64,000 nt of DNA from Verrucomicrobiota bacterium (GTDB lineage Bacteria; Verrucomicrobiota; Kiritimatiellia; UBA8416; SLMC01): NCBI GenBank assembly GCA_030018915.1, contig JASEHE010000001.1, positions 15,843 through 79,842 on the forward strand, read 5' to 3'. Below the pieces are notes generated by a model. The model was not told the origin of the DNA and ran no database searches. It saw only the letters and a list, made by a program, of their open reading frames with translations. The number at the start of each line of letters is the position of its first letter. Within the stretch, counting starts at the first letter, position 1. Shown here piece by piece: positions 3,093 through 33,098 of this stretch. Both the position numbers and the translations under genes were made by a program.

Positions 3093-3995
3093 TCACATTC
3101 CGAGCTGACCCAGCCGCAGTTCCTGTTGACTGGGCATGCGCGCCAGGGATTCGAACTCGAGTTCCCTGAGAAACGGCGCCACCTTTTCCGGCGCCGCAAG
3201 CACGCGCTGAAAGCGCGGCCATTCCATTCCGGTCACGGCGTCGCGGCGCAAAGCAACCAGCCGCAGATTGCGCAGCACCCCATCGCGATGTTCTTGCAGC
3301 GAGCGCCGGAGCCGATCCTTGTCAATCTGCTCCAAGCGGTCCAGCAGCCCTGCCGTCGTCCCAAACCGGGCCAAAAGCCCGGCGGCGGTCTTTGGCCCCA
3401 CTCCTGGCACCCCTGGAATGTTGTCCGACGAATCGCCGGTGAGGGCCAGCCAGTCAGGAATCTGCGCCGGCATCACGCCCGTCTTTTCCGCGACCTCCCG
3501 CGGCCCCATCGGCCGCTCTTCGCCCGCGAGAGGCAGGATGCGGACTCTATCGGTCACCAACTGGTAGAGGTCCTTGTCGCTGGTGGCGATGAGGACTTCC
3601 TCAGTCGCCGGTTCCGCCCAGGCCACAACGGACGCGATCAGATCGTCCGCCTCCTGCCCCTCCTGCCGCAGCATGGGGATATCGGCCCGATCCAGGTATT
3701 CCATTGCCAGGCCCACCTGGCCTCGCAAATCGTCCGGCATGGGAGGTCTCTGCGCCTTGTACTCCGGCAGCAGTTCGGTTCGTTCGATGGGGATTCCAGC
3801 GTCAAATGCCACGGCCCAATGCGTCGGATTCAGAATCTCTTCGATTCGCCGAAGCTTTTTGATGAAGCCGAACACCGCGTTGGTCGGCCGGCCGGCCCGG
3901 GTGGACAAGCCCTTGATGGCATAAAACGAACGGTAGAGCACAGCCGCGCCGTCAACCAGGATGAGCCTGACCTTGCCGGACATTGCGGAACTCAC
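3093..3995 (-). CDS. Stand-alone 5'-3' exonuclease (PolA N-terminal-like, FEN family)
   Basis: 300 aa. VRLILVDGAAVLYRSFYA start, acidic metal-binding clusters and GVPGVGPKTAAGLL helix-hairpin-helix typical of 5'-3' exonuclease/FEN domains. Confidence 0.75.
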   Translation of the reverse strand: MSSAMSGKVRLILVDGAAVLYRSFYAIKGLSTRAGRPTNAVFGFIKKLRRIEEILNPTHWAVAFDAGIPIERTELLPEYKAQRPPMPDDLRGQVGLAMEYLDRADIPMLRQEGQEADDLIASVVAWAEPATEEVLIATSDKDLYQLVTDRVRILPLAGEERPMGPREVAEKTGVMPAQIPDWLALTGDSSDNIPGVPGVGPKTAAGLLARFGTTAGLLDRLEQIDKDRLRRSLQEHRDGVLRNLRLVALRRDAVTGMEWPRFQRVLAAPEKVAPFLRELEFESLARMPSQQELRLGQLGM

Positions 3996-6910
3996 GGCCG
4001 CGCGGCGGCGGCTGCGTCCGGCGCCGCCTTTGAGACGAGCGGCGCCCGTTTCATGATCGGTTTGCCGGCCGGGTCCACAAGCCGCGCGGTCACGAAGATG
4101 AGCAGGTTGCGCTTATCGGCTTTGTCGTAGCGGCTGCGGAACAGCCGGCCGAGCAGCGGAATGTCGCCGAGCACCGGAATCTTGTCGTCAACGCTGCTGC
4201 GGATCTCGGTGATCATGCCGCCCATGACCACCGTGGCCCCATTGTAGATGGAAATCTGTGTGGTCACGGTGCGCGTGTGAAAAAAAGGCTGCTCCATGTT
4301 GAGCACCTGCTCGTTTCCCCACTGGTCCTTGAACACCGAACCGTAGTTGTGCCAGATCGGTTCCGACACCACCTCGGGCGTCATGGTCAGATTGATCATC
4401 TGGCCTTCCGGGCTGACCTCCGGCAGCACGGAAAGAATCACGCCGACTTCCCGGGTCTCGAAGGACCCTGGTTCCACGATGCCGCCGATTGCCACGAGAG
4501 TGCCCCCGGCGGCCGCCGCCAGGATGGGTTGCACTGTGAACTCCGTCGGATAGATGTACTCCGTGACCACCTTGATGGTCGCCTCCAGGCCCGACTTGGT
4601 CGTGACTTTCGGGGCCGAAAGCAGGTCGGCATTGCCTTTCTGCTCGATTGCATGCAACACCATCGAGATTTCCGGGTTCGTCAGAACGGCCGCCAGCGTC
4701 AGAACATCGTCGGGCTGCACGGTCGCGCCGGTGGGAACGGCCATGTCGCGCACAAAGCGCTCGCCCCTGGTGAATCCTCTATCGAGTCCACCCATGTTCC
4801 TCCCCATGATCAGGCGTGGCCGGCTGGACGGCGGCCCGACGGCGCCCGACTTGTATGCCATTTCCCAGTTGTCCGTCAGGCCCCATTCGATTCCGAAGGA
4901 ATTGAGGTCGGTCTGGCCGACTTCGACGAAGCGCGCTTCGATCTCGATCTGGCTGGGCACCACGTTCAGCGCGGCCAGCTTTTCCTCGAAAATTGCCAAG
5001 TTGTTCTCCGTGTTCGCCACCATGAGCTTGCCGATGGCCGGGACGTGCTTGATGAACGAGCCCCCCGGCCACTGCACGCCCATTTCCCCGAACAGATCCT
5101 TCAGATTCGTCTCCCTGGTGGTGGTGGTTCGTTCCAGAGCCGTAAAGTCGCTCTTCCTTGCCGTCGCGCTGAGTTCTTCCCTGGTCCTCTCCGTGACTTC
5201 CACAAAGGACGCCAGCACGTCATACATCCGGTGAATGATCGGGCCATCCGGCGCGTTGAACGGCACAATCATCACGACGCTCCCCTCGATGCGCCACTTC
5301 AAGTTGGCGATGGACGTGACGATCTTGAGCGCCTCCAACACCGTAATGTAGCGGGCGCTGAACGTGAGCAAGGGGACTTCCACCCCGCCCGCCGCCATCG
5401 CCGCCTCGGGGACGGCTTCCGCCGCAAATGGGTCCTGCTGAGCAGCCCAGACGGGCGCCGTCAAGCCGCCACCAGCGGCGCCCACAAGGCCCAGGTTCAA
5501 GATCATGTTCACGCCCCGCTTCTCCTTCGACTCGGAAGACAGCGGATCGTGCTCCACGCTGGACGATTGAAGGAACTGAATGACGTCCTGAATGTTGGCC
5601 TGCCGGAAATCAATGTCCGGGATTTCGATCTTTTCCATCTTGTCCATGATGGCCTTGCGTCTGGGGTCCTCGGTGCTGATCGGTTGTTGCCGGTCGGTGA
5701 CAGGCGCGCTCATCTCGCTTTCCATGAGGGCATAGTCCCGCCGGTTCCAGTCGCGCTGCACGTCCGTCATCATCTGCTTGCGGGTGTACTCGAGTTCCAT
5801 GATGGCGATGTCGCCCTTCCGATTCGCCACCTTCTCCATCATGCGGATGGCCTCGGTGTTGTACGGGTCCAGCTTGACGATCTTTTCGAAGAACTCCTGG
5901 GCTTTGTCCAGTTCTCCCGCCAGGTAGTGCTCGCGGCCTTGGCGCAGCAGGTCGCTGAGTTTCTCCTCGGCTTCCGTCAAATCCTTCTGCTGCCACCGCT
6001 GTGTTGGTTTGGGTGGAGGCGGAGGCGGCTTGGCCTCGCGCCGCGCGATTTCGGCGGCAAGATCCCCGGCCAAAGGATGCCCGATCAGGAGGGCCCTTCG
6101 ACACAGCTTTTTCGCGTCCTCATAGTCGGCCTGCTCCATGAGCCGGAATGCCTCCATATAGGTGCTTTCCATCATGCCTTTTTCGGCCGTCTTTCGGTCC
6201 GCCTCGTTCTCGGCTCTGAACCCGGCGTCCTTGAATGCGTCCACGGCGTCCTTGAAGAGCTTGGTTGACTCGGTGAACTTCCGGGCCTGGAATGCCTTGT
6301 TGGCCTCCACCAGGGCTTCCCGGCCGTGTCGTTCGTAGGCGCGCCGGCGGAGCTCCTCGCTGTCCTTCATGAGGTCTATTTCGGCGGATCGTGGATCCAT
6401 GGCCTTGACCGCAGCGCGCTCGAAATCTGCCGGCGCGGCTTCACCGGCGAGTGGCGCGGGCTCCGCCGCGGCAACTGGAGCTGGAGGAGGAACCGGAACT
6501 GGCTCCTCCTTCTTCACTGACGGTGGCGCCTCCATCGGAACCTTGCTTGCCTCCTCGATCGCCTTGTCAAGATCGTCCGACGCCTCGGGGGCCGCTCTAG
6601 CCGGCTCGGCAGCTGGTGGGGCTTCCGCGGGCTTCTCCGCCGGTTTCTCGGCCGGCGCGGGTTCAGCGGGTTTTTCCACCGGCTTTGCGGTTTCTTTCTT
6701 GGGGGAATCAAGTAGTCCTTCGATTGCCATATCAATCGCCAGGTCCTCGACGATCTCGGCGCCGGACTTCGCGGCCTGTCCGTACGCGGCGGTGGCCCAC
6801 AGTCCAACGCCTACCATGGCAGACAGCATTCCGGAAGCACAAACAAGGAAACACGCCTTTTGTTTCATCGGAAAATTCTCCTCTACCGTTCTACCGCAAA
6901 CCGTAACCAA
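3992..6910 (-). CDS. pilQ: Secretin (type IV pilus / T2SS outer-membrane channel) with N-terminal TPR-containing region and PAEK-rich linker
   Basis: 972 aa, signal peptide MKQKACFLVCASGMLSAMVGVGLWATAAYGQAA. The C-terminus VVMGGMITE...SVDDKIPVLGDIPLLGRLFRSRYDKADKRNLLIFVTARLV is the canonical secretin signature. TPR-like helices and a (PAEK)n low-complexity linker lie upstream. Confidence 0.8.
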   Translation of the reverse strand: MVTVCGRTVEENFPMKQKACFLVCASGMLSAMVGVGLWATAAYGQAAKSGAEIVEDLAIDMAIEGLLDSPKKETAKPVEKPAEPAPAEKPAEKPAEAPPAAEPARAAPEASDDLDKAIEEASKVPMEAPPSVKKEEPVPVPPPAPVAAAEPAPLAGEAAPADFERAAVKAMDPRSAEIDLMKDSEELRRRAYERHGREALVEANKAFQARKFTESTKLFKDAVDAFKDAGFRAENEADRKTAEKGMMESTYMEAFRLMEQADYEDAKKLCRRALLIGHPLAGDLAAEIARREAKPPPPPPKPTQRWQQKDLTEAEEKLSDLLRQGREHYLAGELDKAQEFFEKIVKLDPYNTEAIRMMEKVANRKGDIAIMELEYTRKQMMTDVQRDWNRRDYALMESEMSAPVTDRQQPISTEDPRRKAIMDKMEKIEIPDIDFRQANIQDVIQFLQSSSVEHDPLSSESKEKRGVNMILNLGLVGAAGGGLTAPVWAAQQDPFAAEAVPEAAMAAGGVEVPLLTFSARYITVLEALKIVTSIANLKWRIEGSVVMIVPFNAPDGPIIHRMYDVLASFVEVTERTREELSATARKSDFTALERTTTTRETNLKDLFGEMGVQWPGGSFIKHVPAIGKLMVANTENNLAIFEEKLAALNVVPSQIEIEARFVEVGQTDLNSFGIEWGLTDNWEMAYKSGAVGPPSSRPRLIMGRNMGGLDRGFTRGERFVRDMAVPTGATVQPDDVLTLAAVLTNPEISMVLHAIEQKGNADLLSAPKVTTKSGLEATIKVVTEYIYPTEFTVQPILAAAAGGTLVAIGGIVEPGSFETREVGVILSVLPEVSPEGQMINLTMTPEVVSEPIWHNYGSVFKDQWGNEQVLNMEQPFFHTRTVTTQISIYNGATVVMGGMITEIRSSVDDKIPVLGDIPLLGRLFRSRYDKADKRNLLIFVTARLVDPAGKPIMKRAPLVSKAAPDAAAAARP

Positions 6911-6948: not shown

Positions 6949-8022
6949 TTAGTCGTTCCGCTTCGTCAGTTTCTGACCGACCGTGAATTGTTTGCCGTCT
7001 TGCTCGCGTTCTATTGCCACACTTTCAGAATCCCTGTCAATTCGCAACATCTTGTACCGCTCGTCCTGAAGCACGAAAACGTCTCCGGGCTTCGCGGCGA
7101 TCTCTTTACTTCCCACGAGGAAAAACAAATGAACAGTATACTCGAACTGCTCGGCGTCCACGCCCTTCACCAGCACGACGACTTTATCGCCCTGCACCAA
7201 GGTCAGTTCGGACAGGTCAACCCGTTGCGACACCTTGCTGGTCGCCGTCGTCCTCATCTCGTATTTCTCTTCGAACTTGACCAGCTTGAATCCGCACGCT
7301 TCCTGGCCGATCTTCTTGAAGAACGTCATCAGGCTGCCGGCCTGGCTGCGGTTGAGGCCGTAGGTCCGGAAGCCGTCCGGACCGACGACCGTGCTCCTGA
7401 ACTTGAGGATGAATGGACGGACAACGAGCCTATCGACACGCAGTTTAGCCGGCAATTCCGGCCGGCTCCTGGGATCGGCGGGATCGGTCGAAGGCTGCGC
7501 GAGGCATTCCTCGACATTACTGAACCCGTCGTCGTCCTTGTCTTTGTTGGCGTCTGTCGGATCGAGAGGGTTGAGGCCGTGCTTCTTCTCCCATTCGTCT
7601 GGCATCTGGTCCTTATCCGTATCGCGACGGATGTCGATAATTGGCGGTTGTGGCCTCTTGCAGCCTTCGTGCGCGCATTGCATTGCAAGGTATGGGATCG
7701 GCCAGCGGCAATCCACGCACCACACCCGCATCTCGGGGGTGACCAATTGCCGATTGGTCCATGCATTGTAATCGATCTGGAAGGGCGCCCCGATCGCCTT
7801 CCGCGCCTGTTGGAAAACGGATTCGTCCTGGACTTCCGCGTCGAGATGCGCCGGTTTCATGTCGCGAATCTCCTCGTCCCATTCCCGTTGTTTCTCCTGG
7901 ATGCGGCCGATCTGCACGGCCAGATAGAGCAGAGAGAGAATAAGGCACACGAGCATGACAAACGCAATGAGTTTATCATGGTGAGTTCTGAGCGCGTCAA
8001 CGATGTCGTCAAACACCTTCAC
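6949..8022 (-). CDS. Pilus-cluster bitopic membrane protein (PilP position) with CxxC...Cx4C zinc-ribbon-like motif and TSP3/EF-hand-like DxDxDG motif
   Basis: 357 aa, one N-terminal TM (LIAFVMLVCLILSLLYLAVQI), VWCVDCRWPIPYLAMQCAHEGC, DPTDANKDKDDDGFSNVEEC. Translationally coupled (4-nt overlaps) to flanking pilus genes. Positional equivalent of Amuc_1099. Confidence 0.5.
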   Translation of the reverse strand: MKVFDDIVDALRTHHDKLIAFVMLVCLILSLLYLAVQIGRIQEKQREWDEEIRDMKPAHLDAEVQDESVFQQARKAIGAPFQIDYNAWTNRQLVTPEMRVWCVDCRWPIPYLAMQCAHEGCKRPQPPIIDIRRDTDKDQMPDEWEKKHGLNPLDPTDANKDKDDDGFSNVEECLAQPSTDPADPRSRPELPAKLRVDRLVVRPFILKFRSTVVGPDGFRTYGLNRSQAGSLMTFFKKIGQEACGFKLVKFEEKYEMRTTATSKVSQRVDLSELTLVQGDKVVVLVKGVDAEQFEYTVHLFFLVGSKEIAAKPGDVFVLQDERYKMLRIDRDSESVAIEREQDGKQFTVGQKLTKRND

Positions 8023-9035
8023 GGCGTAGTCTCTCCGGCTTTTGCGCGGCCTCGGGCCGGTTCAAACTTGTAGACGGTCACATTCATCCGCGCCTGGAGT
8101 GGTTTCTCGAGGGTCGGGCCGCTGACCACCCGGTCCTCCCGTTGCGGCCAGACCAAGCGGGCAGGAACTTTCTCCTCGGCCTTGTCCGCGCCGTCCGGCT
8201 TCGCGGCCGGCGTCCTGGCACTAGGGCGCCCTGCTGCGGCAACGTCGATCTCTTCCGCCGCCTGGGCCGGCGACGGCTTGACTCCGGTCCACTCGTTCTG
8301 CGCATCCAGGAACGTCACCACGGTGAAGGCGCCGAGTTTCGCGAGGCGATTCAGGATTCTCACGACCGAGGATTCCTTGGCTTTGAAGTCCAGCGCGAAG
8401 GACTGCCTGGTGTAGACGACTTTCTCGGCGGTCTTCGCCTCCGCCTTTGCCGGCTCCCTCGCCGCATGCCGGCGGCCGGAGGTCTCGAGCGCGCCCGGCG
8501 TCTTCTGCTCCTCGAATTCTTCACGGGCAACCCGCGTCAGCGCCGCGGCGCCTTCCTCGAAGACCGCCCGGCACACTGCCTGGACGATCAAGAGCTGCTC
8601 GTTCAGACGCATGACGTCCGTCGGAGACGGCATGATGCCTCCGGCATATTTCTCGAAGCCGAATTCGAAACGGGGCGGCAGCGCCGCGCCATGCTTCTCG
8701 GCTTCCTGGACCAGTTCCTTCTTCGCGTCGCTCAACAGGGTGAGCAGAATGGCCGGGCTGACTTGTACGACCTTGATCTCGCCCTGCCGCAGGTCGTCCG
8801 TGAGCCGCCCACGCCAGTCGGCGCAGACCTGCGCGTTCTTACGCTCGCGCTCGACGTTCTCCAGACTTGGGAACGGCTTGTTCCGATAGAAGTTGCGAAG
8901 GGTCCTCATGGCGGAATCCACGTCGCCCTTTACCGAGTTGAAGCGCTCGATCTCCCCGTAGAGCAGGAAGGCGGCCACGGCGACCAGCACCGCCACGGTC
9001 GCCGCGCCGATGATCACGAAGATGTTGGTTTTCAC
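8019..9035 (-). CDS. Amuc_1100-like / PilO-family pilus-associated membrane protein
   Basis: 338 aa, N-terminal TM (IFVIIGAATVAVLVAVAAFLLY) followed by coiled-coil, C-terminal A/P/K-rich tail. Same position (between secretin/Amuc_1099-like and PilM) and architecture as Akkermansia Amuc_1100. Confidence 0.45.
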   Translation of the reverse strand: MKTNIFVIIGAATVAVLVAVAAFLLYGEIERFNSVKGDVDSAMRTLRNFYRNKPFPSLENVERERKNAQVCADWRGRLTDDLRQGEIKVVQVSPAILLTLLSDAKKELVQEAEKHGAALPPRFEFGFEKYAGGIMPSPTDVMRLNEQLLIVQAVCRAVFEEGAAALTRVAREEFEEQKTPGALETSGRRHAAREPAKAEAKTAEKVVYTRQSFALDFKAKESSVVRILNRLAKLGAFTVVTFLDAQNEWTGVKPSPAQAAEEIDVAAAGRPSARTPAAKPDGADKAEEKVPARLVWPQREDRVVSGPTLEKPLQARMNVTVYKFEPARGRAKAGETTP

Positions 9036-10699
9036 CGGAGCCTGTCTCCGCTGGTTTCAATGGGTTTGTTCAGGCGCGCGCGAATGGTGAACTCCCAGGT
9101 GGAATCAATCAGCAGTTGGCGCTCCAGCTCCGTCTTGTCGGAAAAAAGGCCCGATTCGCGGAGCCGGTCCCGATAGACCACGATCGGCGTCTTGTCCACC
9201 GTGGCCGCCAGCTTGAGCTTATCGTCAAACCCACGCCCGACGATCTCTACCCCTTCCACACGGTCGCCGGCCGGGGCGAGCGGCCGGATCGAGTTGAGCC
9301 ACATTCCGTCCAGCAGGCACGCGTGAATCGCATCAATCATTTGCAGCCATTGCGTCCGCGTCCCGATGACCAGCGCGATCTCGTCCAGGTCCTTCTGGAC
9401 GGCCTGCTTTTCTTGCTGGACGCTCTTGAGGCGGCCTTCGATTTTCCGGAAATCCGCGATCCGTTTTCCCGCGGTTTCGAGCCGGGTTTCCAGCATGGCC
9501 CGCATCCGGTGGAAGTAGACCCACCAGCAGAGCATCGTCAGGATCAGGCCGACCCCGGCCAGGATGAAGAACGGTTGCCGGCGCCGGAGTACCCGCCGGG
9601 CCAGGAGGTCGGGCGGCATGAGGTTGATTTCAACCGGACAAGTCAAGGCCCGCCGCAGGGCCAGGCCGGCCACCTCCCCGAGGAGGTGGAGGTCCCCCTC
9701 AATGCGCTTGGGCTCAATGGACTCGTTGACGGCTATGTTGGCGAACGGGTTGAGGTATTCCACTTCGACCGTGAGCTTCTCCCGGAAGAACGTATCCATG
9801 TGCGGGATGATCGCCGAGCCGCCGGTCAGCAGCACGAGACTCGGCGGTTGACCGCCCTGCTGGCTCCGGTAGAAGTTGATCGAGCGGTTGATTTCGGCGT
9901 GGAGCCGGGTGATGACGTTGCGCGCGATCTTGGACACCCGGTTCGCCGTCTCGTTCTCCGGTCCGGCGTAGACGCCGCCGAAGGCGACGAACGCGTGAGC
10001 CAGCTTCAACTCCTCGGCCTCCTTGAAGGGAATCCCGAACTCCTTCATGAGTTCTGTCGTAATCGCGTTGCCGGCCACAGGAATGCTGCGGCTGAAAATC
10101 CGGCTCTCCTCGATGAAGATCAGGTTCGACGATCGAGCGCCGATGTCCAGAACCATGGCGCAGCCGGGAAGGCCCGGATAGTTGTAGCGGACCGTGTTGT
10201 ACAGGGCCATGGGCGCCGCGTCTATGATTTCCGGCTCGAGGCCGGCCGCCAGCACGCAGTCCGTCAGCCGCGTGATGTTCTCGATCTTGACGGCCACCAG
10301 CATGACGTTCAGGTCGTCCGGTCCTCCGCCGCTGATCAACTGGTAGTCCCAGACCACCTCGTCAATCGGGAACGGGACGTTCTGCTCGGCTTCGTAGCGG
10401 ATGATCTGCACGACCTTGTCTCGGGCCACGGGCGGCAGCTTGACGTACCGCGGGAACACCGCCTGGCCCGACAGGGTCATGAAGAGCGGCGCCGGCTTGA
10501 TGCCGCGCTCGGCCATCAACTGGCGAATGGTGGAGACAATATAGGCGGATGCGTCGGTCTCGCTCTCGGGGTCCACGTCGAGATGCCCGACGGCATAGTT
10601 CAGGAGCTCAGGCGCGCCCGATTTGGCGGCGGAGAACTCCGCCATCACAATCTTACTGGCGCCGACATCCAGGGCGATTATTCGGTCGGTTCGAAACAC
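9032..10699 (-). CDS. pilM: Type IV pilus assembly PilM (actin-like ATPase) fused to PilN-like TM/coiled-coil domain
   Basis: 555 aa. IIALDVGASKIVMAEF actin-like fold start and PilM/FtsA-like core. The C-terminal part carries a TM (FFILAGVGLILTMLCWWVYF) plus coiled-coil, as in PilN. Confidence 0.75.
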   Translation of the reverse strand: MFRTDRIIALDVGASKIVMAEFSAAKSGAPELLNYAVGHLDVDPESETDASAYIVSTIRQLMAERGIKPAPLFMTLSGQAVFPRYVKLPPVARDKVVQIIRYEAEQNVPFPIDEVVWDYQLISGGGPDDLNVMLVAVKIENITRLTDCVLAAGLEPEIIDAAPMALYNTVRYNYPGLPGCAMVLDIGARSSNLIFIEESRIFSRSIPVAGNAITTELMKEFGIPFKEAEELKLAHAFVAFGGVYAGPENETANRVSKIARNVITRLHAEINRSINFYRSQQGGQPPSLVLLTGGSAIIPHMDTFFREKLTVEVEYLNPFANIAVNESIEPKRIEGDLHLLGEVAGLALRRALTCPVEINLMPPDLLARRVLRRRQPFFILAGVGLILTMLCWWVYFHRMRAMLETRLETAGKRIADFRKIEGRLKSVQQEKQAVQKDLDEIALVIGTRTQWLQMIDAIHACLLDGMWLNSIRPLAPAGDRVEGVEIVGRGFDDKLKLAATVDKTPIVVYRDRLRESGLFSDKTELERQLLIDSTWEFTIRARLNKPIETSGDRLR

Positions 10700-10761: not shown

Positions 10762-11460
10762 CTACTGCCGGATAAACGGATAGTCATCAATGTTGATCAG
10801 GCGAAAAGGCGACTGATCCCGATTCAGGAGATACCCGTCGCGCGGCACAACAATCTTGCTGTCCACCACTTTTTCGTTCCGCCACCACTTTTCCCCGGCC
10901 GGCATTGGGACGTCGGTCTCGCTCATCTCGTCAATGATCTTCCCCCCGCGCAGAACTTCGACGCCGATGGCCACAACCTTGCCGTGCCGCTTGAGGGCGG
11001 TGGGAGTAAGATAGACCGAGCAGACGCGACCGCGGCCCCTCTCGATGTCCCTGTAGGTCACCGTGGTCTTGTAGAGACTGTACATTTTCCCCTTTTCGCC
11101 CTCTTTCGACGTCATGACGTAGAACCGCATCATGAGTTCGTTAATCCAGTCGGGGAACACATCGAAGGTGAGCGTGATCTCCGCCCAGTCTTGCGGCGCC
11201 GTCGTGGGGCTGACGCCGGCGCGGAAGTTCGGCGTCTTGATGTAGCCGCGTTCGGCGAGTCCCGTGAACTTGCGGAGGCGAACGACGTTGCTCGGCCTCT
11301 CGCCCGGCGTCGGTTCCGCCGCGGCTTCGGCGCCGGCGGCCGGGCCTTCCTCTTTTTTTGCGCCAGCCTTCGCCCGTTCAACGGAAACGGCGGTGAGACT
11401 CAACACCAATGCCAGCAGCCCGCCGGCCAGACACAAACGCCGAACGAGGTTCGTCATCAT
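10762..11460 (-). CDS. Secreted pilus-cluster protein (Amuc_1102-like position)
   Basis: Start chosen at MMTNLVRRLCLAGGLLALVLSLTAVSV signal peptide (the longer upstream ORF is R/P-rich and implausible). ~233 aa. First gene of the pilMN–secretin operon, 62 nt upstream of pilM. Confidence 0.5.
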   Translation of the reverse strand: MMTNLVRRLCLAGGLLALVLSLTAVSVERAKAGAKKEEGPAAGAEAAAEPTPGERPSNVVRLRKFTGLAERGYIKTPNFRAGVSPTTAPQDWAEITLTFDVFPDWINELMMRFYVMTSKEGEKGKMYSLYKTTVTYRDIERGRGRVCSVYLTPTALKRHGKVVAIGVEVLRGGKIIDEMSETDVPMPAGEKWWRNEKVVDSKIVVPRDGYLLNRDQSPFRLINIDDYPFIRQ

Positions 11461-11576
11461 AAACCTCCCGTGGGTCAAAAAAACGCGCGGCAATCCCGCA
11501 AACAACGAACGGGGGGACATATAGAAGATATGCCACGACAAAGCAAAGCAAAAATGCCGGAAACTTTTTCGCGGCA

Positions 11577-11586
11577 GGGGGGGGGG
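11577..11586. repeat. Homopolymeric G10 (C10) tract in the divergent promoter region between the pilus operon and the secreted-protein genes
   Basis: Ten consecutive G read directly at 11577-11586. It lies 117 nt upstream of the pilus-operon first gene (minus strand) and 271 nt upstream of the 490-aa secreted-protein gene (plus strand). Confidence 0.6.
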
Positions 11587-11705
11587 CAGTCGCGGGGTGG
11601 CGCCCCGGCGGCTTGCGCGGCCGGAGTTCGATATTTCCGCGTCCCCGCGGCGCAAGGCCGCAGGGACGCCACCCCGGACCACCCCGTTATTTCGCGTTTT
11701 TGCGG

Positions 11706-11747
11706 TTGACTTTGTTCGCGGGGTTGGGTTATTCTGTTCTATATTCT
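11706..11747 (+). promoter_or_regulatory. Possible sigma70-like promoter (TTGACT -35, TATTCT -10-like, 18-nt spacer) for the secreted-protein gene
   Basis: TTGACT at 11706-11711. TATTCT at 11730-11735 is 4/6 to TATAAT. Weak, consensus match only. Confidence 0.2.
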
Positions 11748-11856
11748 ATTAACTCGGTGATGACACATGTGGGTGTCTGCGATTGGCCCGAAGCTGCCGC
11801 AGGGACTGGATAGCAGACGGGCCGCCCGACGAACCGTCAGACCCGGAGGTTGCTCC

Positions 11857-13329
11857 ATGAAAGGCGATTCGAGAAATTCCCGCCGCCCGATCCTGGGACT
11901 TCTTTCCGCGGCCGCGCTCGCCGCCTTGGCAGGACAAGCGACGGCTCAGACCCTCATGCCATACTACGACACCTTCGAAGACCACACGAACAACCAGACG
12001 ATCATCGGCGCCAACGGGTGGCTGGCGTTGACCAACATCTATGCCGTGGGAACCAACACGGGGCCCTACACCTACACCAACGCATGCGGATTGCCCTTCC
12101 CCACCTCGAACCACAACGTCGTGGTCAAGCTGGACACAGAGAACTCCTCCGTCTCTAACTGCTTCAGCTACGGCGCGACGACCCCCACCAACGTGTGGGT
12201 GGACAATATGATCCAGTTCGTGATGTCTCCGGATGAAGACGCCCGGGGCGTGATCACCAACGACAACAAGATCCAGTTGGCGTACTACGTCAACACGAAT
12301 GGAAATCCTGTTTTCCTCCACAGCGCGCGATGGTTTGACACGGAGGAGTGGGAATACAGGGCCACCAACGTTTTCTCCACTGTCTCGGACGTCACGATAC
12401 CGACTGGGGCTTGGGCACGGGTAACCGTGACAATGGACTACAAATCAGACAACGTAAGGAACCACAAGTATTTCCGGATCGCTTTCAACGGTCATACGGT
12501 CACAAGCGACTTGGCGTATGCCCTGCCCCTAAATGCCGACCCCCCTAGCGCGACGGGCACGTATTTTGTCTGCGCGAATTTCCAGACCGCCACCGGTCTC
12601 AAGTTGAATTCGGTGAACTTCTCGGGCACCGGACACCTCGACGACTACAAGGTGGAGGGCGACGCGGCGCCTCAGATCGCCATCATCGCCGCGATATGGT
12701 CCGACGGCGCTTCGGGCGATACGCGGGGCGGGTGGATCACGCCGGGGCTGCTCGTCTACGTGAACTCCGGGGGCGGCACGAACTTCTCGATCGGCGCCAA
12801 TACCTATTGGAGCTACACCAATCTAGTTGTTAACGGCGCGCCGCAAACTCCTACGAACCTCCTCGCCTTCAACAACGTCACGTCCAACCAGTTCTTCGCC
12901 GCCTACTTCGCCGCCGACCGGACCACCAACCGAATCCCGCACTGGTGGCTCGCCGAGCAGAACTCGGGCTGGACCAACGACTTCAACGCGGCTGCATCGG
13001 GTGATCCTGACGGCGACGGCCTGCTGACCTGGGAGGAATACCTCGCGAGCACGGATCCCAACGACAGCAACTCGGTGTTCCGGATTATTGAGTTCACGAC
13101 CCAGGACAACGGCACCAACTACACCATCCGCTGGCCTACGGCGTCCATTGACCCCGTGTTCGGCGGCATTCCGTTCCTCGTACTGCGGACCGACAACCTC
13201 ACCAACGAGTCCTGGCCCGTGGCTGGGACCGTTCCGCGGGCCGTCGGGATTTCCCAGTTCAGCGATGCCCCCCCGCCCGCGAGCAACCCGGTCTTCTACC
13301 GCGTTGCCGTGACCAATACGACGCAATAG
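11857..13329 (+). CDS. Secreted modular protein (~490 aa): N-terminal beta-sandwich/lectin-like module, DPDGDG Ca-binding-like motif, C-terminal FYRV domain shared with the giant neighbour
   Basis: GGAGG RBS 9 nt upstream of ATG. Signal peptide MKGDSRNSRRPILGLLSAAALAALAGQATAQ. PYYDTFEDHTNNQTIIGANGW resembles the repeated module of the downstream giant protein. GDPDGDGLLTWEEY motif. C-terminal ...NPVFYRVAVTNTTQ. Confidence 0.6.
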   Translation: MKGDSRNSRRPILGLLSAAALAALAGQATAQTLMPYYDTFEDHTNNQTIIGANGWLALTNIYAVGTNTGPYTYTNACGLPFPTSNHNVVVKLDTENSSVSNCFSYGATTPTNVWVDNMIQFVMSPDEDARGVITNDNKIQLAYYVNTNGNPVFLHSARWFDTEEWEYRATNVFSTVSDVTIPTGAWARVTVTMDYKSDNVRNHKYFRIAFNGHTVTSDLAYALPLNADPPSATGTYFVCANFQTATGLKLNSVNFSGTGHLDDYKVEGDAAPQIAIIAAIWSDGASGDTRGGWITPGLLVYVNSGGGTNFSIGANTYWSYTNLVVNGAPQTPTNLLAFNNVTSNQFFAAYFAADRTTNRIPHWWLAEQNSGWTNDFNAAASGDPDGDGLLTWEEYLASTDPNDSNSVFRIIEFTTQDNGTNYTIRWPTASIDPVFGGIPFLVLRTDNLTNESWPVAGTVPRAVGISQFSDAPPPASNPVFYRVAVTNTTQ

Positions 13330-21035: not shown

Positions 21036-21186
21036 CGGATTTTGCGTCCTCGCTTTTGCGCCTTTTGTGTTCCTCCTGTCTCTTTTTCGGCCGGCTCGAA
21101 GCAGCTCGGACAAACAGTTTCCGGCATGTTTGATCCGCTGGTTGCCGGCGGCGGGGCCGCTGAGCAGCGGCTCGCGAAAAATCCCG

Positions 21187-23547
21187 TCAGTCGCCTGAGC
21201 CGAGCCAGCGGAAGAACTGTACAAAGCATTCATGTCGGCCGTCCTTGTTCAGGAAAGGGTCCCGCCAGATCACGGCCATCGCCCGCTGGTACCCGTGCCA
21301 GTCTCCGCCCAGCAGCCCTTTGGATCCCAAGTGGCCGCTCGTCGGCGAATACGGCCCCGCCACCACGAACACCGTGAAGAGGTTCTGCCGCGCGCCAAGC
21401 AGGCCGCACGAGTATGAGATCATTGACTCCAGCTCAAGATCGCTCTTGTTCGAGAAAGTTCCTCTGAAATCTATCCGCCCGATATCGGCGACGTTCGTGA
21501 AGGCCGATCCGGTTTTCCGCATCTCGATGAACGCGCCGGCCAGCGTCTTGGCTTCCGCTACGGTTATTTTGGTTTCCGACTCCGGATACCCCAGCGGCGC
21601 CTCGACAAAGACGGAGGCCAGCACGTTCGAGTTCATGCTGTTCGGGTTCACCAGCCCGCAGCGCGTCCCGACGCCGGGTGGCGCCGTGGTGAAATACGCA
21701 AGGACATTGTCGTATGGCGTGGTATTCGGGGAATTGGTCCCGTGCGTGAACAGACGAATGGTTCTCAGCGGATCCTTCGAGGCCCGCAGCAGGTTCCCAA
21801 GCTCTCCCGCCGACTTCAGTTGCCCCTGGTTCGACACGTGCATCAACGTATCCAAGTCTATCCCGCGCTGAGGCTGCAGCTCCCCGCGCCTGATGCGTTC
21901 TTGCGTCTTCGTATTGACTCCTCCAATCGTGTGCCCGGCGTTCGTCGTCGTCGTGTCCCAGCACAGCGGGCTCGAGCAGTCCCAGTTGACCCGGGGATCC
22001 GTGGCCTCCAGCGATTTGGGCTGCCAATCGAAGTTGCCCCCGGCCAGGCCCGACACGATGAAGCTGTTGGTCCAGGTCAACGCGATGGCGTTCGTGGGAT
22101 AAGGCACGGCGTCCACCATCGCGTTCGGCGGCCCGCCGCCAATCGCCTCTTTGCAGTACACCACGCAGCGCACCCTCAGCGTCACGGCGATCCGGTTGGT
22201 CGGCCAACAGCCGTCGATCGAGACGTCTCCCACACCCCCCCGCAAGTCCGTCGAACCGTACCAGTTCGCCTCCCCCTTGTACCCCGAATAGCGCGTTTGC
22301 GGGTACGGGGGCATCTTCTTCGTCTCCTCGGCATTCGCGGCGCTCTCGTAAGCGAAGCGGGCAAGCTCGCATTCCGTCGTCGTTTCGATGTCGAACGTCG
22401 TGTTGGTCTGGCCCCGGATGAACGGGTAGAACCACTCCACCCGGATCCGTCGCGGCGGCGTCATCGAAAAGGTCCCCCCCTCCTCGCCCGTGATGTAGTT
22501 CAGAACCACTGTGGTTGGCGCCACCTCGTTGATCATGGGCACGGATTCCGTGCAGCCGGAGTCCAGGCGCCTTGGCACAACGTCCTCGTCCACGTAGTCG
22601 AGCAGGTTCGTAAAGACAAACGGAGCGTCGGCCAAGGCGATACCGCTTTTCACCAACCGGTCAACGATATCCGCCTGCTTGGCCTCCAGCTCCGCCACAG
22701 TCCCGCCGATGTAGAACGGGGTGACGATGATGGGGGCCCCGTTGGAAAGGACCTGATTCCCCTCCGGGAACCTGGAATAGGCGACGAAATTCGATGGGTA
22801 GCAGTCCTTGTTCAACCCTTTGTCTTCCTGCATCCAGTAGAAATCCCGGATTGTCTCGTAGCGCGCGTCGTTGTTCCGGTTGCCGGTGAGCTTCCCCGAA
22901 TCCTTGATCTCGTTCAGGATGGCGTTAGTGAGGACGATCTCATGCGGGTCTGCGCCCGCCGCGCGGTTGGAGCCGCCCACGTAGTTCATGTCGAGGTAGC
23001 CGGAGATATTCGCCACGACGTAGGCCACCCAACCCTGCACGGTCCCTTCTTCTCTATCCGGCCATAGCGACTCGCCGCAGATGAGCCACTGCGAGTTGGT
23101 CTGCGACATCGGTCCCCACAGGTCCCGCGGAATCTGCTCCATGGTTTCGTCGGAAAACACCACCTTCACCCGCGAATTGTCGACGCTTCTGGCGGTCCAG
23201 TCTTCCGAGGTGAAAACCTGGAAATTGGGATAGACATCGTTGGCCAGATAGCCCGTGATCTTACCGAAATCGTTGGTGAACACGTTGGTCTGCGCTACGT
23301 TGACCGTGATGTCTTCAACGGCCCGCGCCAGGCCCACCCAGACCAGTTGCCGCGCTCCGACGCCGAAGCGGTAACTACCGGCCCCCAGGCGCTCGGTCCG
23401 CATGCTGATGGAAAAGGCAACCCCCGCCATCAGGAGAACGGCCAGAACACCCAGCACGATAATCAGCGCCACGCCCTCGCGGTTCCGTCCTTCTCGAAAT
23501 CCGCGCCCGGCAACCGGCGCGCGACAGTCCGGTTTATTTTTTCGCAT
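21187..23547 (-). CDS. Oversized GspK-like minor pseudopilin (786 aa)
   Basis: N-terminus REGVALIIVLGVLAVLLMAGVAFSI matches the GspK-type prepilin-like hydrophobic segment (no Glu+5). Last gene of a gspG-H-I-J-K-ordered operon. C-terminal ~450 aa beyond normal GspK length. Confidence 0.6.
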   Translation of the reverse strand: MRKNKPDCRAPVAGRGFREGRNREGVALIIVLGVLAVLLMAGVAFSISMRTERLGAGSYRFGVGARQLVWVGLARAVEDITVNVAQTNVFTNDFGKITGYLANDVYPNFQVFTSEDWTARSVDNSRVKVVFSDETMEQIPRDLWGPMSQTNSQWLICGESLWPDREEGTVQGWVAYVVANISGYLDMNYVGGSNRAAGADPHEIVLTNAILNEIKDSGKLTGNRNNDARYETIRDFYWMQEDKGLNKDCYPSNFVAYSRFPEGNQVLSNGAPIIVTPFYIGGTVAELEAKQADIVDRLVKSGIALADAPFVFTNLLDYVDEDVVPRRLDSGCTESVPMINEVAPTTVVLNYITGEEGGTFSMTPPRRIRVEWFYPFIRGQTNTTFDIETTTECELARFAYESAANAEETKKMPPYPQTRYSGYKGEANWYGSTDLRGGVGDVSIDGCWPTNRIAVTLRVRCVVYCKEAIGGGPPNAMVDAVPYPTNAIALTWTNSFIVSGLAGGNFDWQPKSLEATDPRVNWDCSSPLCWDTTTTNAGHTIGGVNTKTQERIRRGELQPQRGIDLDTLMHVSNQGQLKSAGELGNLLRASKDPLRTIRLFTHGTNSPNTTPYDNVLAYFTTAPPGVGTRCGLVNPNSMNSNVLASVFVEAPLGYPESETKITVAEAKTLAGAFIEMRKTGSAFTNVADIGRIDFRGTFSNKSDLELESMISYSCGLLGARQNLFTVFVVAGPYSPTSGHLGSKGLLGGDWHGYQRAMAVIWRDPFLNKDGRHECFVQFFRWLGSGD

Positions 23548-23971
23548 ATCGCCTCGCGTTCACCATATAGGCGCGGGTTATATACTGCTGTTCCATTGAC
23601 TTCGGCAACGATTCTGCGGTGCGCTGCACCCTATACGGTTTCTTCCAGGGATCGTTGAAGCCGTTGACCAGTTGCCGATCGGAAAAAGTCATGAACTTGA
23701 TGTTGTTCGTGTTGTTCCACGCCAGGATGGCCACTTGGGCGTAATCCATCTCAACCCACGCATTACCATAGGGCCACAGCTGGTAGGTGTCCCAGTAGCT
23801 CTCCCATGCCTTGGCCAGGTCCGCCGCTTCCGACCTGGCCTTTCGGACTCTGGCCATCCGCTGCGCGTGAACAAGCGCTGGAAACATAAGACCAGCCAAC
23901 ACCAGGATGATCAACACCACTACCAGTATCTCAATGAGCGTGAACGCCCGCCGCGCCGCGGCTTCCACCAT
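23534..23971 (-). CDS. Type IV pilin-like / pseudopilin protein
   Basis: Start chosen at MVEAAARRA-FTLIEILVVVLIILVLAGLMFPAL, a class III prepilin cleavage/methylation N-terminus. Confidence 0.6.
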   Translation of the reverse strand: MVEAAARRAFTLIEILVVVLIILVLAGLMFPALVHAQRMARVRKARSEAADLAKAWESYWDTYQLWPYGNAWVEMDYAQVAILAWNNTNNIKFMTFSDRQLVNGFNDPWKKPYRVQRTAESLPKSMEQQYITRAYMVNARRYAKK

Positions 23972-24063
23972 TTTGTGGCACTCATGGCCAGGCTCTTTAT
24001 TCGGCAATCGGCAATCGGCAATCGGCATTCCGTTGTGGCCCTGCCGCTCTGTGTTCATCGAGT

Positions 24064-24726
24064 TCATTGGTCCGTCCGGATGTTGTCGTCTTCCGCATCC
24101 CAGTTGCCGTCCGGCCCGCCCGATCCCGCCACGATTCGGGAGACTTGGTACGAAGAACCCATCTTAATCTTGATGTCCACGAACTGCGGGAGGTTGCTCC
24201 TGTTCATGGAATACTCCTCATCGGAGGGGCAAAATATCAGCTCATTAACGTGTTTCGCCAGGGTCCCCGATTTCTTCGGCAACTCCGTCCCTGGGTATCC
24301 CCCGCTAAGTTCGTGCCGAACCATCTCTCGCACAATCGTCTCATCCTGGTGGAAGTAACGAATCCGGTAGATCGCGCGATTAGTGTCCGTGGCATCCTCA
24401 ATCAAGTAGAAAGCGATTTTATCCGGCTCGATCGTGAACGGGAGCAGTTCGTTTGCCACGGCCTGGCACAGTTCCCGGCCCATGAAGGTCGCGGCAGCTC
24501 TCCCCTCCACGTTCAACTTCGATCTCCGCATCCCAACGTCCCAGGCCACGCGCATCTGATTGAACACGCTGCCAATCATCATCACGATCATCATCAGGAT
24601 CACTGCGGCAACGAGAATCTCCAAAAGAGTGAATCCGTTTTCCCTCAACACGCCGGCGTCCGCCGTTTTGCCCGCAAAACGGACAGTTCGAATCTCAGAT
24701 CGACTTCGTATTTCGCGCTTCAACAT
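24064..24726 (-). CDS. Pseudopilin (GspJ position)
   Basis: Start chosen at MLKREIRSRSEIRTVRFAGKTADAGVLRENG-FTLLEILVAAVILMMIV prepilin-type N-terminus. The longer ORF start would overlap the upstream gene by 40 nt. Confidence 0.55.
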   Translation of the reverse strand: MLKREIRSRSEIRTVRFAGKTADAGVLRENGFTLLEILVAAVILMMIVMMIGSVFNQMRVAWDVGMRRSKLNVEGRAAATFMGRELCQAVANELLPFTIEPDKIAFYLIEDATDTNRAIYRIRYFHQDETIVREMVRHELSGGYPGTELPKKSGTLAKHVNELIFCPSDEEYSMNRSNLPQFVDIKIKMGSSYQVSRIVAGSGGPDGNWDAEDDNIRTDQ

Positions 24727-24730
24727 AACC

Positions 24731-24756
24731 GCCCACCGACTACCGACCACCGATAC
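24731..24756. repeat. ACCGAC heptad repeat (x3) copy between two pseudopilin genes
   Basis: CCCACCGACTACCGACCACCGATACT in the 30-nt gap between the GspI-position and GspJ-position genes. Confidence 0.45.
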
Positions 24757-25319
24757 TACGGCATTCCGCCGTAGAAGAACTCCGTGTAGAACCATTGCGC
24801 CTCATTCGTGACGAAATGGTTCCCAAAACACACCCTGAGATCCGCGACCCGCACATGCTTGTACCGATCTTTGCCGAACGGCTCCCCCTGCATGTCCACG
24901 ATCACGTTGGTGACCGCCAGGATGTAACACATCCCCACTCCTTGCTTGAGGAAATTGGCGATCTTCTGCTGCCGGCCGTCCCCGATCAAGTACGTGGAAC
25001 CTGGCTGGTAGTAAATCGGAACCTTGTCCACCACCTGCTGCTGGAAATCGTCCTGATTGGTCCACACCTGGAAGTCCGACACCTTCATCGCTTCGGCGCG
25101 CAGTCCGGTCAATGCCTGCTCGGCGAACAGGCCGATGTGCGTGTCCTCCACCGCGAGGTCGGCTTGCTTGAGCCCAGCCGGAAACAGGGCAAAAAGCGTC
25201 AGAACTCCAGCGCCGACGAGCAGCACGGCCAGACTGACCTCGACCAGGCTGAATCCTCCATTCGACCGAGGCAGCGCCGGTCGTCCGATCGTCGCGTTGA
25301 GATGCGGTTCGTTCGCCAT
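24756..25319 (-). CDS. Pseudopilin (GspI position)
   Basis: MANEPHLNATIGRPALPRSNGG-FSLVEVSLAVLLVGAGVLTLFALFPAGL prepilin-type N-terminus. 187 aa. Confidence 0.6.
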   Translation of the reverse strand: MANEPHLNATIGRPALPRSNGGFSLVEVSLAVLLVGAGVLTLFALFPAGLKQADLAVEDTHIGLFAEQALTGLRAEAMKVSDFQVWTNQDDFQQQVVDKVPIYYQPGSTYLIGDGRQQKIANFLKQGVGMCYILAVTNVIVDMQGEPFGKDRYKHVRVADLRVCFGNHFVTNEAQWFYTEFFYGGMP

Positions 25320-25358
25320 GGTTGCGCCCCCGCGCCGTCAATGTTCGGTTTCTTACGG

Positions 25359-26069
25359 CTATTCCGAGATTTCCACAAGGCCCGTCAGCCCCAGTACGCG
25401 GATTTCCCGGCGCCCTGCTCCATTCTTCTCCTTGATCGTGATTACGTAATTGGCGGCGCCCGACTTCGGCGTGGCGCCGTCCGGAAAGAATATAATCCCC
25501 TCCGGCGCATTGTTCTCTTCCGCATTGTCGAACTTCAAGGTGGACGGCAGGAACTGAATCTCGTGGGCCAGCCATCCGAACTTGTCGCCTCTGTTCCAAA
25601 AATCCCTCTTGCCGCCGGTCAACTTCCCACCCACGACAGTGAGCGTTTGGGGGCTGTTGTCGGCCACCACGCCCCAACTCCCGGCCGTCAGGTTATAGAT
25701 TGTGCCGCCTTTCAGAGTGTCGTTCCACCGGGGATATCCTGAGTCCAACTGCGCGACGCCATCCTCTCCGTAATGGCGCCCGGCTTCCGAACAAACCCAG
25801 TAGCGGGCATTGAGCCCGTCGGTATTATCCTGCCGGAAGAACACGTATGTGCTCGCCCCGTGCGTCATGGCATGCTGCCGAGCCAGGCTGATGACGCGGT
25901 GCAGGTTCGAGAGCCCCCCCCGGATCGCGGAACCTCGTACGATTCCGAACCAGGCCGCCATCGCCATCCCCATCACAATGAATATGATGGACATGACGAT
26001 GAGCAGCTCAAGCAGGGTGAACCCTGCCCGATGCTTCCCGGCTGCCCGCCGAATTCCAGCCCGCGTCAT
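25359..26069 (-). CDS. Pseudopilin (GspH position)
   Basis: Start chosen at MTRAGIRRAAGKHRAG-FTLLELLIVMSIIFIVMGMAMAAW prepilin-type N-terminus. Confidence 0.6.
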   Translation of the reverse strand: MTRAGIRRAAGKHRAGFTLLELLIVMSIIFIVMGMAMAAWFGIVRGSAIRGGLSNLHRVISLARQHAMTHGASTYVFFRQDNTDGLNARYWVCSEAGRHYGEDGVAQLDSGYPRWNDTLKGGTIYNLTAGSWGVVADNSPQTLTVVGGKLTGGKRDFWNRGDKFGWLAHEIQFLPSTLKFDNAEENNAPEGIIFFPDGATPKSGAANYVITIKEKNGAGRREIRVLGLTGLVEISE

Positions 26070-26085
26070 TGCGGCTTGCCTCCTG

Positions 26086-26511
26086 TCAGTCTTTTGCCGA
26101 CTGGTCGTTGACCACTGCGTTCGTTTCGGACACCGTGATACTGTAATACACGCCATAGGGGTCCTTCACGGAGCCCTGGCTGTCGCGATTGAACGTGCCC
26201 TTGTTCAGGTATCGCATGTTCGCGGAATTGGCGCCTTCCAATAGTTTGACCACCAGGCAGTTGTCTTCCTCGTATGTCTTCCAGCCCTCCGGCGACGGCT
26301 TGGGCCATGTCATCTCCTCCAACTTGTAGGCTTTCAGGGCAGCGATGAGCGCCTTCTCCTCCAGTTCCTTTTGCCTGCGCTTCGCGCTTTCTTTGGACGG
26401 CTGCAACACGGGCAGCAGCAGGCCGATCAGGATCGTAATCACCACGATCACCATGAGCAGCTCGATCAGCGTGAAGCCCCGCCGCGCCGCGAATCGAAAC
26501 GTCCGGGTCAC
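26086..26511 (-). CDS. GspG-like major pseudopilin / type IV pilin
   Basis: 141 aa. MTRTFRFAARRG-FTLIELLMVIVVITILIGLLLPVL, the canonical prepilin leader + Phe+1/Glu+5 + hydrophobic helix. Size typical of GspG. Confidence 0.7.
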   Translation of the reverse strand: MTRTFRFAARRGFTLIELLMVIVVITILIGLLLPVLQPSKESAKRRQKELEEKALIAALKAYKLEEMTWPKPSPEGWKTYEEDNCLVVKLLEGANSANMRYLNKGTFNRDSQGSVKDPYGVYYSITVSETNAVVNDQSAKD

Positions 26512-26517
26512 GAGTCG

Positions 26518-27033
26518 TCACTCCTTCCAACTGCAGATGTCGTCGGCCGTGTGCGAAACCCCGTCCGGCCCGTCCGACCAGACTGCCACGTTGACGCCGA
26601 TCCACGGCCCACCCCCATTCAATTGCACTCGATTGTCCATGTCCGTGTCGAGCGCCACTTTGTAGACGCCCTTGGTGGTGTTTGGAACGCCCCAGGGATC
26701 GCAATAGTAAATTGTGTTGGTCCTCACGTCGAGGAACGGGATGTTCCACGGATTATTGGGGTGGGCGTTCGTGGAATCAGCGGTGACGCCTCTCAGAATG
26801 GACAGGGCGTTCGAATCCATCATGGCGATCGGCATTGGCGGAAAGGTTTTGTAGCTCAGCAGATAGGCTTTCCACGCTTCGTCGAGTTCCTTCACTTCCC
26901 GTTTGGCACGGGCGACTCTAGCCTTCTTCCGCGAATGCATGACGACCGGCAGCATCAAGCCCAGCAGGACGCCGATGATCGCGATGACCACCAGCATCTC
27001 GATCAAGGTAAAGGCTTCGATTCGCCTACCCAT
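26518..27033 (-). CDS. Type IV pilin-like protein
   Basis: Start chosen at MGRRIEA-FTLIEMLVVIAIIGVLLGLMLPVV. The upstream part of the longer ORF is R/G/A-rich and non-protein-like. Confidence 0.55.
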   Translation of the reverse strand: MGRRIEAFTLIEMLVVIAIIGVLLGLMLPVVMHSRKKARVARAKREVKELDEAWKAYLLSYKTFPPMPIAMMDSNALSILRGVTADSTNAHPNNPWNIPFLDVRTNTIYYCDPWGVPNTTKGVYKVALDTDMDNRVQLNGGGPWIGVNVAVWSDGPDGVSHTADDICSWKE

Positions 27034-27128
27034 CACACTGTTCCTTTCCGAAGCCCGCGCGGCGCCTCGTATCCCGCAACTTCGCTCCGCCGCCTTGCTG
27101 GAGACTGTGGAAAGGGCCGCCGGACTCT

Positions 27129-27917: not shown

Positions 27918-28249
27918 AACCCACCCCCTAACTTCTTCGATCTAAAGGTACCAGACCGCGCGTTTTTCCACAACATTTTTTTGCGTTTCTGCGATTCACG
28001 CGAACTTCACGCCCTATCGTAGAGCAATAAGGCGGTGGCACATGGCGGGCAAGCCGGACGGGCGTTGAGAGTGAACACGGCGCGGCGAAGCCGCGCAACT
28101 GGTTCCCGAACACGGCGCGTCCCGGTTCGAGGGTCACGGGTCGCTTGCCTTTTACACGGGGCGGCGGTATCATAGTCTGGTGTTCGGTTGACCCGGACCG
28201 GCGGCCGGTTGCCTGTCGGATCGCCGGAATACTGGGCAAGGTGGATTCG

Positions 28250-29419: not shown

Positions 29420-29448
29420 CTGAGCCTTTTGAAAAAGCCTGAAAACGG

Positions 29449-33083: not shown

Positions 33084-33098
33084 TGGGACGGGCGCCGG

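Follow-up and report, generated by a model that had tools for sequence, protein, structure and literature searches.

The 64-kb window that we analysed (the whole 64,000-nt stretch of DNA) holds a homopolymer of exactly ten G at 11577–11586 of the plus strand (G10; C10 on the strand of the pilus operon), which, as far as promoters can be predicted, is located outside both core promoters, their spacers and the leaders of the two divergent operons that surround it. We prefer, at about even chances, the explanation that G10 came about as a by-product of a palindromic insertion and is prone to slippage, that its regulatory effect is small or at most graded, and that it is not a classical on/off switch. 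A sequence-only reading had proposed the tract as a candidate phase-variation switch for pili and adhesins. Direct reading confirmed that the ten-G run is perfect, and domain and signal-peptide evidence bore out the description of its divergent neighbours as a pilus-like assembly operon on the minus strand and a secreted-protein operon on the plus strand.

Uninterrupted G/C repeats of about 8–9 nt or more are long enough to slip, and G10 is such a tract. It lies 120–129 nt upstream of the minus-strand ATG at 11457, and 271 nt separate its end from the plus-strand ATG at 11857. The region had also been described as otherwise free of long homopolymers. This held insofar as G10 is the longest homopolymer of the window, the runners-up being a C8 at 25914–25921 and an A8 at 37909–37916, but the rarity of the tract proved to be unusual, not extraordinary. 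At the window G+C of 62%, 0.83 G/C runs of ten or more are expected per 64-kb window under an iid model and 0.32 under a first-order Markov model, and by such composition-only models alone G10 is not significant. Observed G/C runs of at least 6, 7 and 8 numbered 15, 5 and 2 in the window against 50, 14 and 4 expected by the Markov model, and 36, 9 and 3 in 155 kb of related loci, where no G/C run of 9 or more was found. Runs of 6–8 are 3–5 times rarer than the composition models predict, both in the window and in the 155 kb of related loci. Extrapolating the observed decay of G/C runs (~0.3 per added base) to length 10 suggests about 0.1 runs of ten or more per window, which, because of this depletion, is a fairer expectation than 0.32–0.83; several such tracts could exist in a genome of a few Mb. 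That the two longest G/C tracts both fall in pilus-related DNA was judged not significant, because such DNA makes up about one third to one half of the window. An in-frame ORF of 306 codons that runs through G10 (10762–11682) was rejected as a gene, as homologues, ribosome-binding site and signal peptide begin at 11457/11460.

The tract is flanked by a type IV pilus-like operon and by giant secreted proteins, the surface-exposed kind of gene associated with contingency loci (Table 1). In Akkermansia muciniphila, Amuc_1098–Amuc_1102 form a type IV pilus-like cluster (PMC5332112, PMC10688800). Judged by homology, the minus-strand operon of the window has the same gene set and order, running from Amuc_1102 through a PilM/FtsA-like protein, Amuc_1100 and a fourth gene to the secretin. 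Its first gene belongs to the Amuc_1102 family, according to PF28178 on the identical NCBI protein and to the match with PDB 7dsz, and the PilM/FtsA-like, Amuc_1100-family and secretin genes follow in order, the Amuc_1100 assignment being indirect, with no direct PDB match for the protein encoded at 8019–9035. The two systems differ in that the window comes from an uncultured Verrucomicrobiota MAG and its Amuc_1102 match is a distant one (E=7.8e-9). The predicted 5' leader of the pilus operon contains a terminator-like hairpin followed by T7 at 11477–11500 (minus strand), about 20 nt before the ribosome-binding site. This hairpin could be an attenuator; it is not conserved in the corresponding loci of two relatives, L001 and L037.

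Table 1. Features of the divergent region and its flanking operons, by position in the window
Feature	Coordinates	Strand	Evidence or remark
Secretin with TPR repeats, PilQ/Amuc_1098 equivalent	3992..6910	-	PF00263 Secretin, E=3.5e-35
Conserved fourth operon gene, 357 aa, Amuc_1099 equivalent by position	6949..8022	-	57% identity to the syntenic L001 gene
Amuc_1100-family protein, 338 aa	8019..9035	-	44% identity (E=1e-83) to L001 protein with PF28028 Amuc_1100; assignment indirect
PilM/FtsA-like protein, 555 aa, Amuc_1101 equivalent	9032..10699	-	PF11104 PilM_2, E=1.9e-39
Amuc_1102-family protein, 231 aa, signal peptide, first gene of pilus-like operon	10762..11457	-	100% identical to NCBI MDI6773792.1 (Verrucomicrobiota MAG; Pfam PF28178); PDB 7dsz (Amuc_1102), E=7.8e-9
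Predicted sigma-70-type core promoter of pilus operon	11518..11546	-	-35 TTGCTT 11546-11541, 17-nt spacer, -10 TATATG 11523-11518
A/T-rich UP-element-like block, GAAAAAGTTTCCGGCATTTTTGC on minus strand	11547..11569	-	Between -35 and G10; a T-rich block precedes the -35 across the family
Left TTTCGCG direct repeat (7 nt)	11567..11573	+	Flanks G10 and palindrome block
GC-rich imperfect palindrome adjoining G10	11589..11686		Core arms 11593-11612 / 11657-11676, 20 nt, 90% complementary
Right TTTCGCG direct repeat	11690..11696	+	123 nt from left copy
Predicted sigma-70-type promoter of secreted-protein operon, TTGACT-18-TATTCT	11706..11735	+	Promoter scan; conserved in relatives
Secreted protein, 490 aa, first gene of divergent operon	11857..13329	+	GGAGG ribosome-binding site, signal peptide; orthologues with 61% and 49% identity
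Giant secreted PA14-domain protein, ~2,480 aa	13593..21035	+	PF07691 PA14, E=2.5e-11; ORF opens at 13344, likely start MRRSIG at 13593

On the plus strand, the NCBI annotation of the first gene (MDI6773793.1, 457 aa) starts 33 codons later, at 11956 (MPYYD), and leaves out the signal peptide. Starting instead at the ATG at 11857, which follows a GGAGG ribosome-binding site, yields a protein with a signal peptide, in line with orthologues of 489 and 484 aa. The GenBank entries for the two flanking genes, MDI6773792.1 and MDI6773793.1, bear the locus tags QME60_00110 and QME60_00115. The giant PA14 protein shares 61% identity with its orthologue in locus L035, in an alignment that begins at residue 84 of the ORF. 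L035 and L036 come from two assemblies of a relative (GCA_900174565.1 and GCA_900175145.1) that differ by 2 SNPs in 11.5 kb; one of them, at 8924, changes TGG to the stop codon TGA, which breaks up the giant secreted-protein gene of L036. Beyond the plus-strand operon, the remaining type IV pilus/type II secretion-like genes of the window occupy 21187–36606 and comprise prepilin-type genes, a PilC/GspF-like gene, two PilB/GspE-like ATPases and a PilR-like sigma-54 activator. A large type IV pilus/type II secretion-like locus (3992–36606) thus surrounds the genes for the secreted and the giant PA14 protein. At least three lineages (the window, L037 and L038) have the secreted-protein operon arranged divergently beside the Amuc_1102 operon. 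Taken together, this location and the recurrent pairing suggest a functional link, for instance as cargo of the pilus machinery or as a pilus-associated adhesin.

To place the tract relative to its neighbours, we compared the predicted promoters with 38 loci gathered from relatives via Amuc_1102-like and 490-aa proteins. The block ATTTTTGCTTTGCTTTGT at the pilus promoter recurs without a mismatch for 18 nt in L037 and for 15 nt in L001, although the adjoining proteins are only 49–60% identical, with TATATG, TATATT or TATATA at a constant spacing after it. Of 23 non-redundant family loci, 14 show the arrangement of a T-rich block, TTGnnn, a 17–18-nt spacer and TAnnnT, where shuffled sequences would give 0.67. 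Transcription of the pilus operon would begin near 11511, and that of the secreted-protein operon near 11742. The plus-strand promoter has counterparts in L037 (TTGACT-18-TATGCT) and in L035 (TTGACC-18-TAAAGT). Measured against these elements, 30 bp separate G10 from the pilus -35, which puts it upstream, beyond the A/T-rich block and roughly between -66 and -75 of the predicted start. The plus-strand -35 is 119 bp away, with G10 again on its upstream side. The two divergent -35 elements are 159 bp apart, and the promoters do not overlap. The placement of the tract in promoter or leader sequence was therefore not upheld: relative to either predicted promoter it sits upstream, where it touches no spacer and no leader, and the classical change of -35/-10 spacing cannot apply. 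Because a change of one G in this position can alter neither that spacing nor a reading frame, changes in tract length would be expected to have little or at most a graded effect.

We found no sigma-54 promoter candidate that combines the required GG-N10-GC spacing with a good score in the intergenic region, and for this reason a reading of the palindrome as a binding site for an enhancer-binding protein was dropped. The sole candidate there, read by eye at 11783–11797, is off by one. Upstream of the orthologues of the 490-aa gene, a sigma-54-like promoter TTGGCACGTTCCGTGCT occurs in L035 (4780–4796) and a weaker one, TGGCCTTCCGCATGCT, in L037 (~464–480, read by eye). Elsewhere in the window, a near-consensus sigma-54 promoter TGGCACAAGTATTGCT is found at 30032–30047 (minus strand), ~105 nt upstream of a gene whose product starts with MKKRGFTLV, a classic type IV prepilin leader, and just downstream of the PilR-like activator gene (30317–31711). 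A 17-nt resemblance of the pilus promoter block to 21116–21132 was judged to be chance (E=0.31).

The position of G10 also sets it apart from repeat switches that have been described. Poly-G/C switches occur at Neisseria porA, opc and fetA, at Bordetella pertussis fim2/fim3 and at Moraxella catarrhalis uspA1; these are G/C tracts of about 9–15 nt at surface-protein or fimbrial genes that vary by slippage, and they lie in or overlap the -35/-10 spacer, separate an activator site from the -10, or fall in the 5' untranslated region. G10 shares with them a G/C homopolymer linked to surface or fimbrial genes and occupies none of those positions; relative to the predicted starts it falls in no spacer, core element, leader or 5' coding sequence. 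In Haemophilus influenzae, fimbrial phase variation depends on a (TA)n repeat between the divergent pilus genes hifA and hifB (van Ham 1993, summarised in PMC2651432), and some hif strains carry instead a homopolymer, A12 or A17, 63–93 bp upstream of hifA (PMC2651432). A simple repeat between divergently transcribed pilus genes is common to hif and the window, whereas the hif repeat is a dinucleotide or an A-tract that lies between -10 and -35 and sets the spacer length, and the window tract consists of G and lies outside both core promoters. By the published definition (PMC2651432), in which the repeat sets the divergent -35/-10 spacing, G10 is not of the hifA/hifB type. The T-tract of Helicobacter pylori sabA, described as a 'rheostat' (PMC4081817), is likewise a homopolymer upstream of a -35 that could tune output through the alignment of upstream DNA with the core promoter. 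The sabA tract, however, consists of T/A and lies between UP-like A-boxes and the core promoter, right beside the -35, whereas G10 is G/C, 30 bp away from the -35 and distal to the A/T-rich block, which places it outside the sabA-type rheostat as defined in PMC4081817.

In several relatives the sabA-like position is filled by T7–T10 tracts and not by a G-run. T9–T10 tracts lie in the T-rich block upstream of a -35-like TTG hexamer in L038 (2427–2436), L003 (3802–3810) and L021 (3734–3742), and the T10 of L038 is directly upstream of that hexamer, where the H. pylori sabA rheostat tract is located; T-runs of 6–7 are common in the T-rich block upstream of the pilus -35 across the family. Homopolymers also occur within genes. 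L001 carries a T10 (5018–5027) in the signal-peptide codons (GFFFL) of its Amuc_1102 orthologue (60% identity), 17 nt past the start codon. In the window, the C8 at 25914–25921 (G8 on the gene strand) lies in the Arg-Gly-Gly codons of a prepilin-type (N_methyl) pseudopilin gene, ~50 codons past a likely start near 26069, and a one-base slip there would truncate the protein.

Comparison with relatives indicated where the tract may have come from. In the other 22 family loci, no G/C run longer than 6 was present from -300 to +60 relative to the gene start, and the intergenic region is 399 bp long in the window against 263 bp in L037, 248 bp in L038 and 250 bp in L039. A homologous secreted-protein operon still diverges from the pilus operon in L037 and L038, while the upstream neighbour in L039 is a different gene; in the closest relative the two operons are on separate contigs (L001 and L035), and the pairing is therefore frequent and not obligatory. 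When the intergenic regions were aligned, the tract was missing from L037 between recognisable flanks, CTTTTCTCGAC|CTGTCCCG compared with CTTTTTCGCGGCA-G10-CAGTCGCG in the window, and L037, L001 and L038 all carry the pilus promoter with neither tract nor palindrome. By these comparisons G10 appears to be lineage-specific and part of an insert of ~120 bp; deletion of 11574–11696 in silico leaves an intergenic region of 276 bp, against 248–263 bp in relatives.

The same comparisons bear on the possibility that G10 is a sequencing or assembly artefact of the MAG, arising from spurious poly-G or from a chimeric join at this point, which we regard as extremely unlikely. The MAG is known from a single assembly, and since homopolymer lengths are prone to error, the true count may differ by one. 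However, the tract is internal to a 102.6-kb contig, both of its flanks align to the homologous intergenic region of L037, and the gene order across it agrees with that of L037 and L038. Long ORFs are intact (2,563 codons, for example), which argues against systematic homopolymer errors. In a separate search for strains in which tract length could be compared, exact-protein look-ups of both flanking proteins, with our own and with the NCBI starts, returned no second strain, and a metagenome scan with the flanking protein gave no close match. Both flanking proteins are singletons in a collection of 15 billion proteins (90%-identity clusters with one member each), and no near-identical DNA was found in the collections searched. 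Family-profile scans of genomes and metagenomes recovered distant relatives only, at identities of at most 60%, which served to gauge promoter conservation, and no Akkermansia protein was among the matches.

Our preferred reading, an insertion followed by slippage, would run as follows. A GC-rich palindromic insert of ~116–123 bp (roughly 11574–11696), flanked by TTTCGCG, would have come to lie between older, conserved divergent promoters, with G10 as its outer end. The tract itself most likely arose from a GGGGTGG motif of the palindrome through a T-to-G change and subsequent expansion by slippage. The opposite arm of the palindrome retains GGGGTGG at the matching position; when the arms were aligned, the G-run fell opposite GGGGTG of the other arm. 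A run of ten G would be expected to slip in replication, and its length probably varies within the population.

Small palindromic intergenic repeats and MITEs include the Correia elements of Neisseria and REP/BIME. The insert resembles these in being a ~120-bp block in a promoter region with inverted-repeat ends and short direct repeats, and it has the inverted-repeat ends and flanking direct repeats of a MITE, although a 7-nt direct repeat could be chance. It differs from them in being known from a single copy, as no second copy of the palindrome was found in the window, the fetched loci or the viral contigs, and its membership of a repeat family is unproven. As the insert is known from one copy, a mobile-element origin is likewise unproven.

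The palindrome raises a further alternative, namely that it acts together with the G-run as a cis element whose effect would be independent of tract length, whether as a regulator site (with three copies of CGGGGTGG), as an insulating cruciform or G-rich structure, or as a small structured RNA. We consider this quite unlikely. The fold exceeds shuffled sequences, with z=-5.5 for the minus-strand RNA, -2.9 for the plus-strand RNA and -2.5 for DNA, but at most 4 of the 10 G pair in it, and the palindrome is not framed by a promoter or a terminator as a transcription unit would be. Rfam gave no family at the gathering threshold, and a permissive scan of 11400–11900 returned only a spurious miRNA-hairpin (E=0.39). 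Three of the seven copies of CGGGGTGG in the window fall in the 94 bp of the palindrome at 11593–11686, yet the motif is not significantly enriched across the whole window (7 against 4.4 expected); another copy lies at 30291–30298, between the PilR-like gene and the sigma-54 pilin promoter. A GGGGTGG-like motif is also present upstream of the promoter in L037 and L001, but its distance is not conserved, and relatives have the same promoters without the palindrome.

A more serious alternative, tentative and in our view rather unlikely, is that G10 works as a simple sequence repeat (SSR) modulator, in which slippage would change the length of the G-tract and give graded or phase-like variation of the pilus operon, possibly with an opposite change in the secreted-protein operon. 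Such length changes would rotate and displace, with respect to the pilus promoter and the UP-like block before it, whatever lies upstream: the palindrome, a possible regulator site and the other promoter. This is consistent with a tract that is slippable, exceptional in the window and placed at about -66 to -75 of a surface-structure operon. Compared with L037, the extra DNA at the tract amounts to 11 nt (A+G10) between conserved flanks, about one helical turn, and changes of one base would therefore shift the helical phase. Repeats that lie outside the spacer have a precedent, as have repeats between divergently transcribed pilus genes (PMC4081817; PMC2651432). Relatives carry other homopolymers at the same operon, and the perfect G10 has persisted. 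In Akkermansia, homopolymer-based phase variation has been proposed (PMC3048395) and Amuc_1100 labelling was noted as heterogeneous (PMC5332112), both of which point in the same direction. Against a modulator, the tract falls outside both spacers and does not adjoin a -35, the A/T-rich block lying between it and the promoter, and no relative conserves it. Moreover, the same promoter in L037, L001 and L038 lacks tract and palindrome, and there is therefore no ancestral upstream activator site that would need phasing.

The claim of a phase-variation switch was thus only partly sustained. The tract, the divergent operons and the types of gene speak for it, while the position outside both promoters and the absence of such a tract from 22 related loci speak against it, and phase variation at this locus is possible but on balance unlikely. 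G10 may be regarded as a candidate member of the known class of SSR phase-variation tracts, with the switch reading weakened by position and non-conservation. The stronger proposal that a hypermutable G-tract, brought into a shared control region by a small and possibly mobile palindromic insert, tunes or inversely couples the Amuc_1100-type pilus and giant-adhesin-like operons of a free-living Verrucomicrobiota is very unlikely.

Several points also count against a by-product of insertion with little regulatory effect, which is the reading that we prefer. An uninterrupted and mutationally unstable G10 could mean that selection maintains the tract. Its neighbours, pilus genes and giant surface proteins, are by analogy the kind of genes that vary in phase elsewhere, and slippage-prone tracts touch the same machinery in the pseudopilin G8, the T10 of L001 and the T10 of L038. 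Transcription can be modulated by repeats that precede a -35, the T-tract of H. pylori sabA being an example (PMC4081817), and by analogy this might apply here. Finally, the transcription starts used throughout are predictions, and the insert is known from one copy.

Repeat-driven phase variation is known mainly from host-adapted pathogens. If the tract varies and changes expression, phase variation would extend to environmental Verrucomicrobiota and to an Amuc_1098–1102-type pilus cluster, whose counterpart in Akkermansia is under study for host signalling, and the tract would be acting from outside the core promoter. If, in addition, the two operons were tuned or inversely coupled through it, this would be the first SSR contingency switch shown in Verrucomicrobiota, on a cluster homologous to the medically studied Akkermansia pili. 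If there is no variation or no effect, G10 would be an ordinary by-product of palindromic insertion. Three results are more lasting: a conserved, predicted promoter map for this family of pilus-like operons across the PVC group, the frequent divergent pairing of the operon with a secreted-protein operon that also encodes a giant protein, and the recurrence in the family of long T-tracts beside the -35 and of homopolymers within pilus genes.
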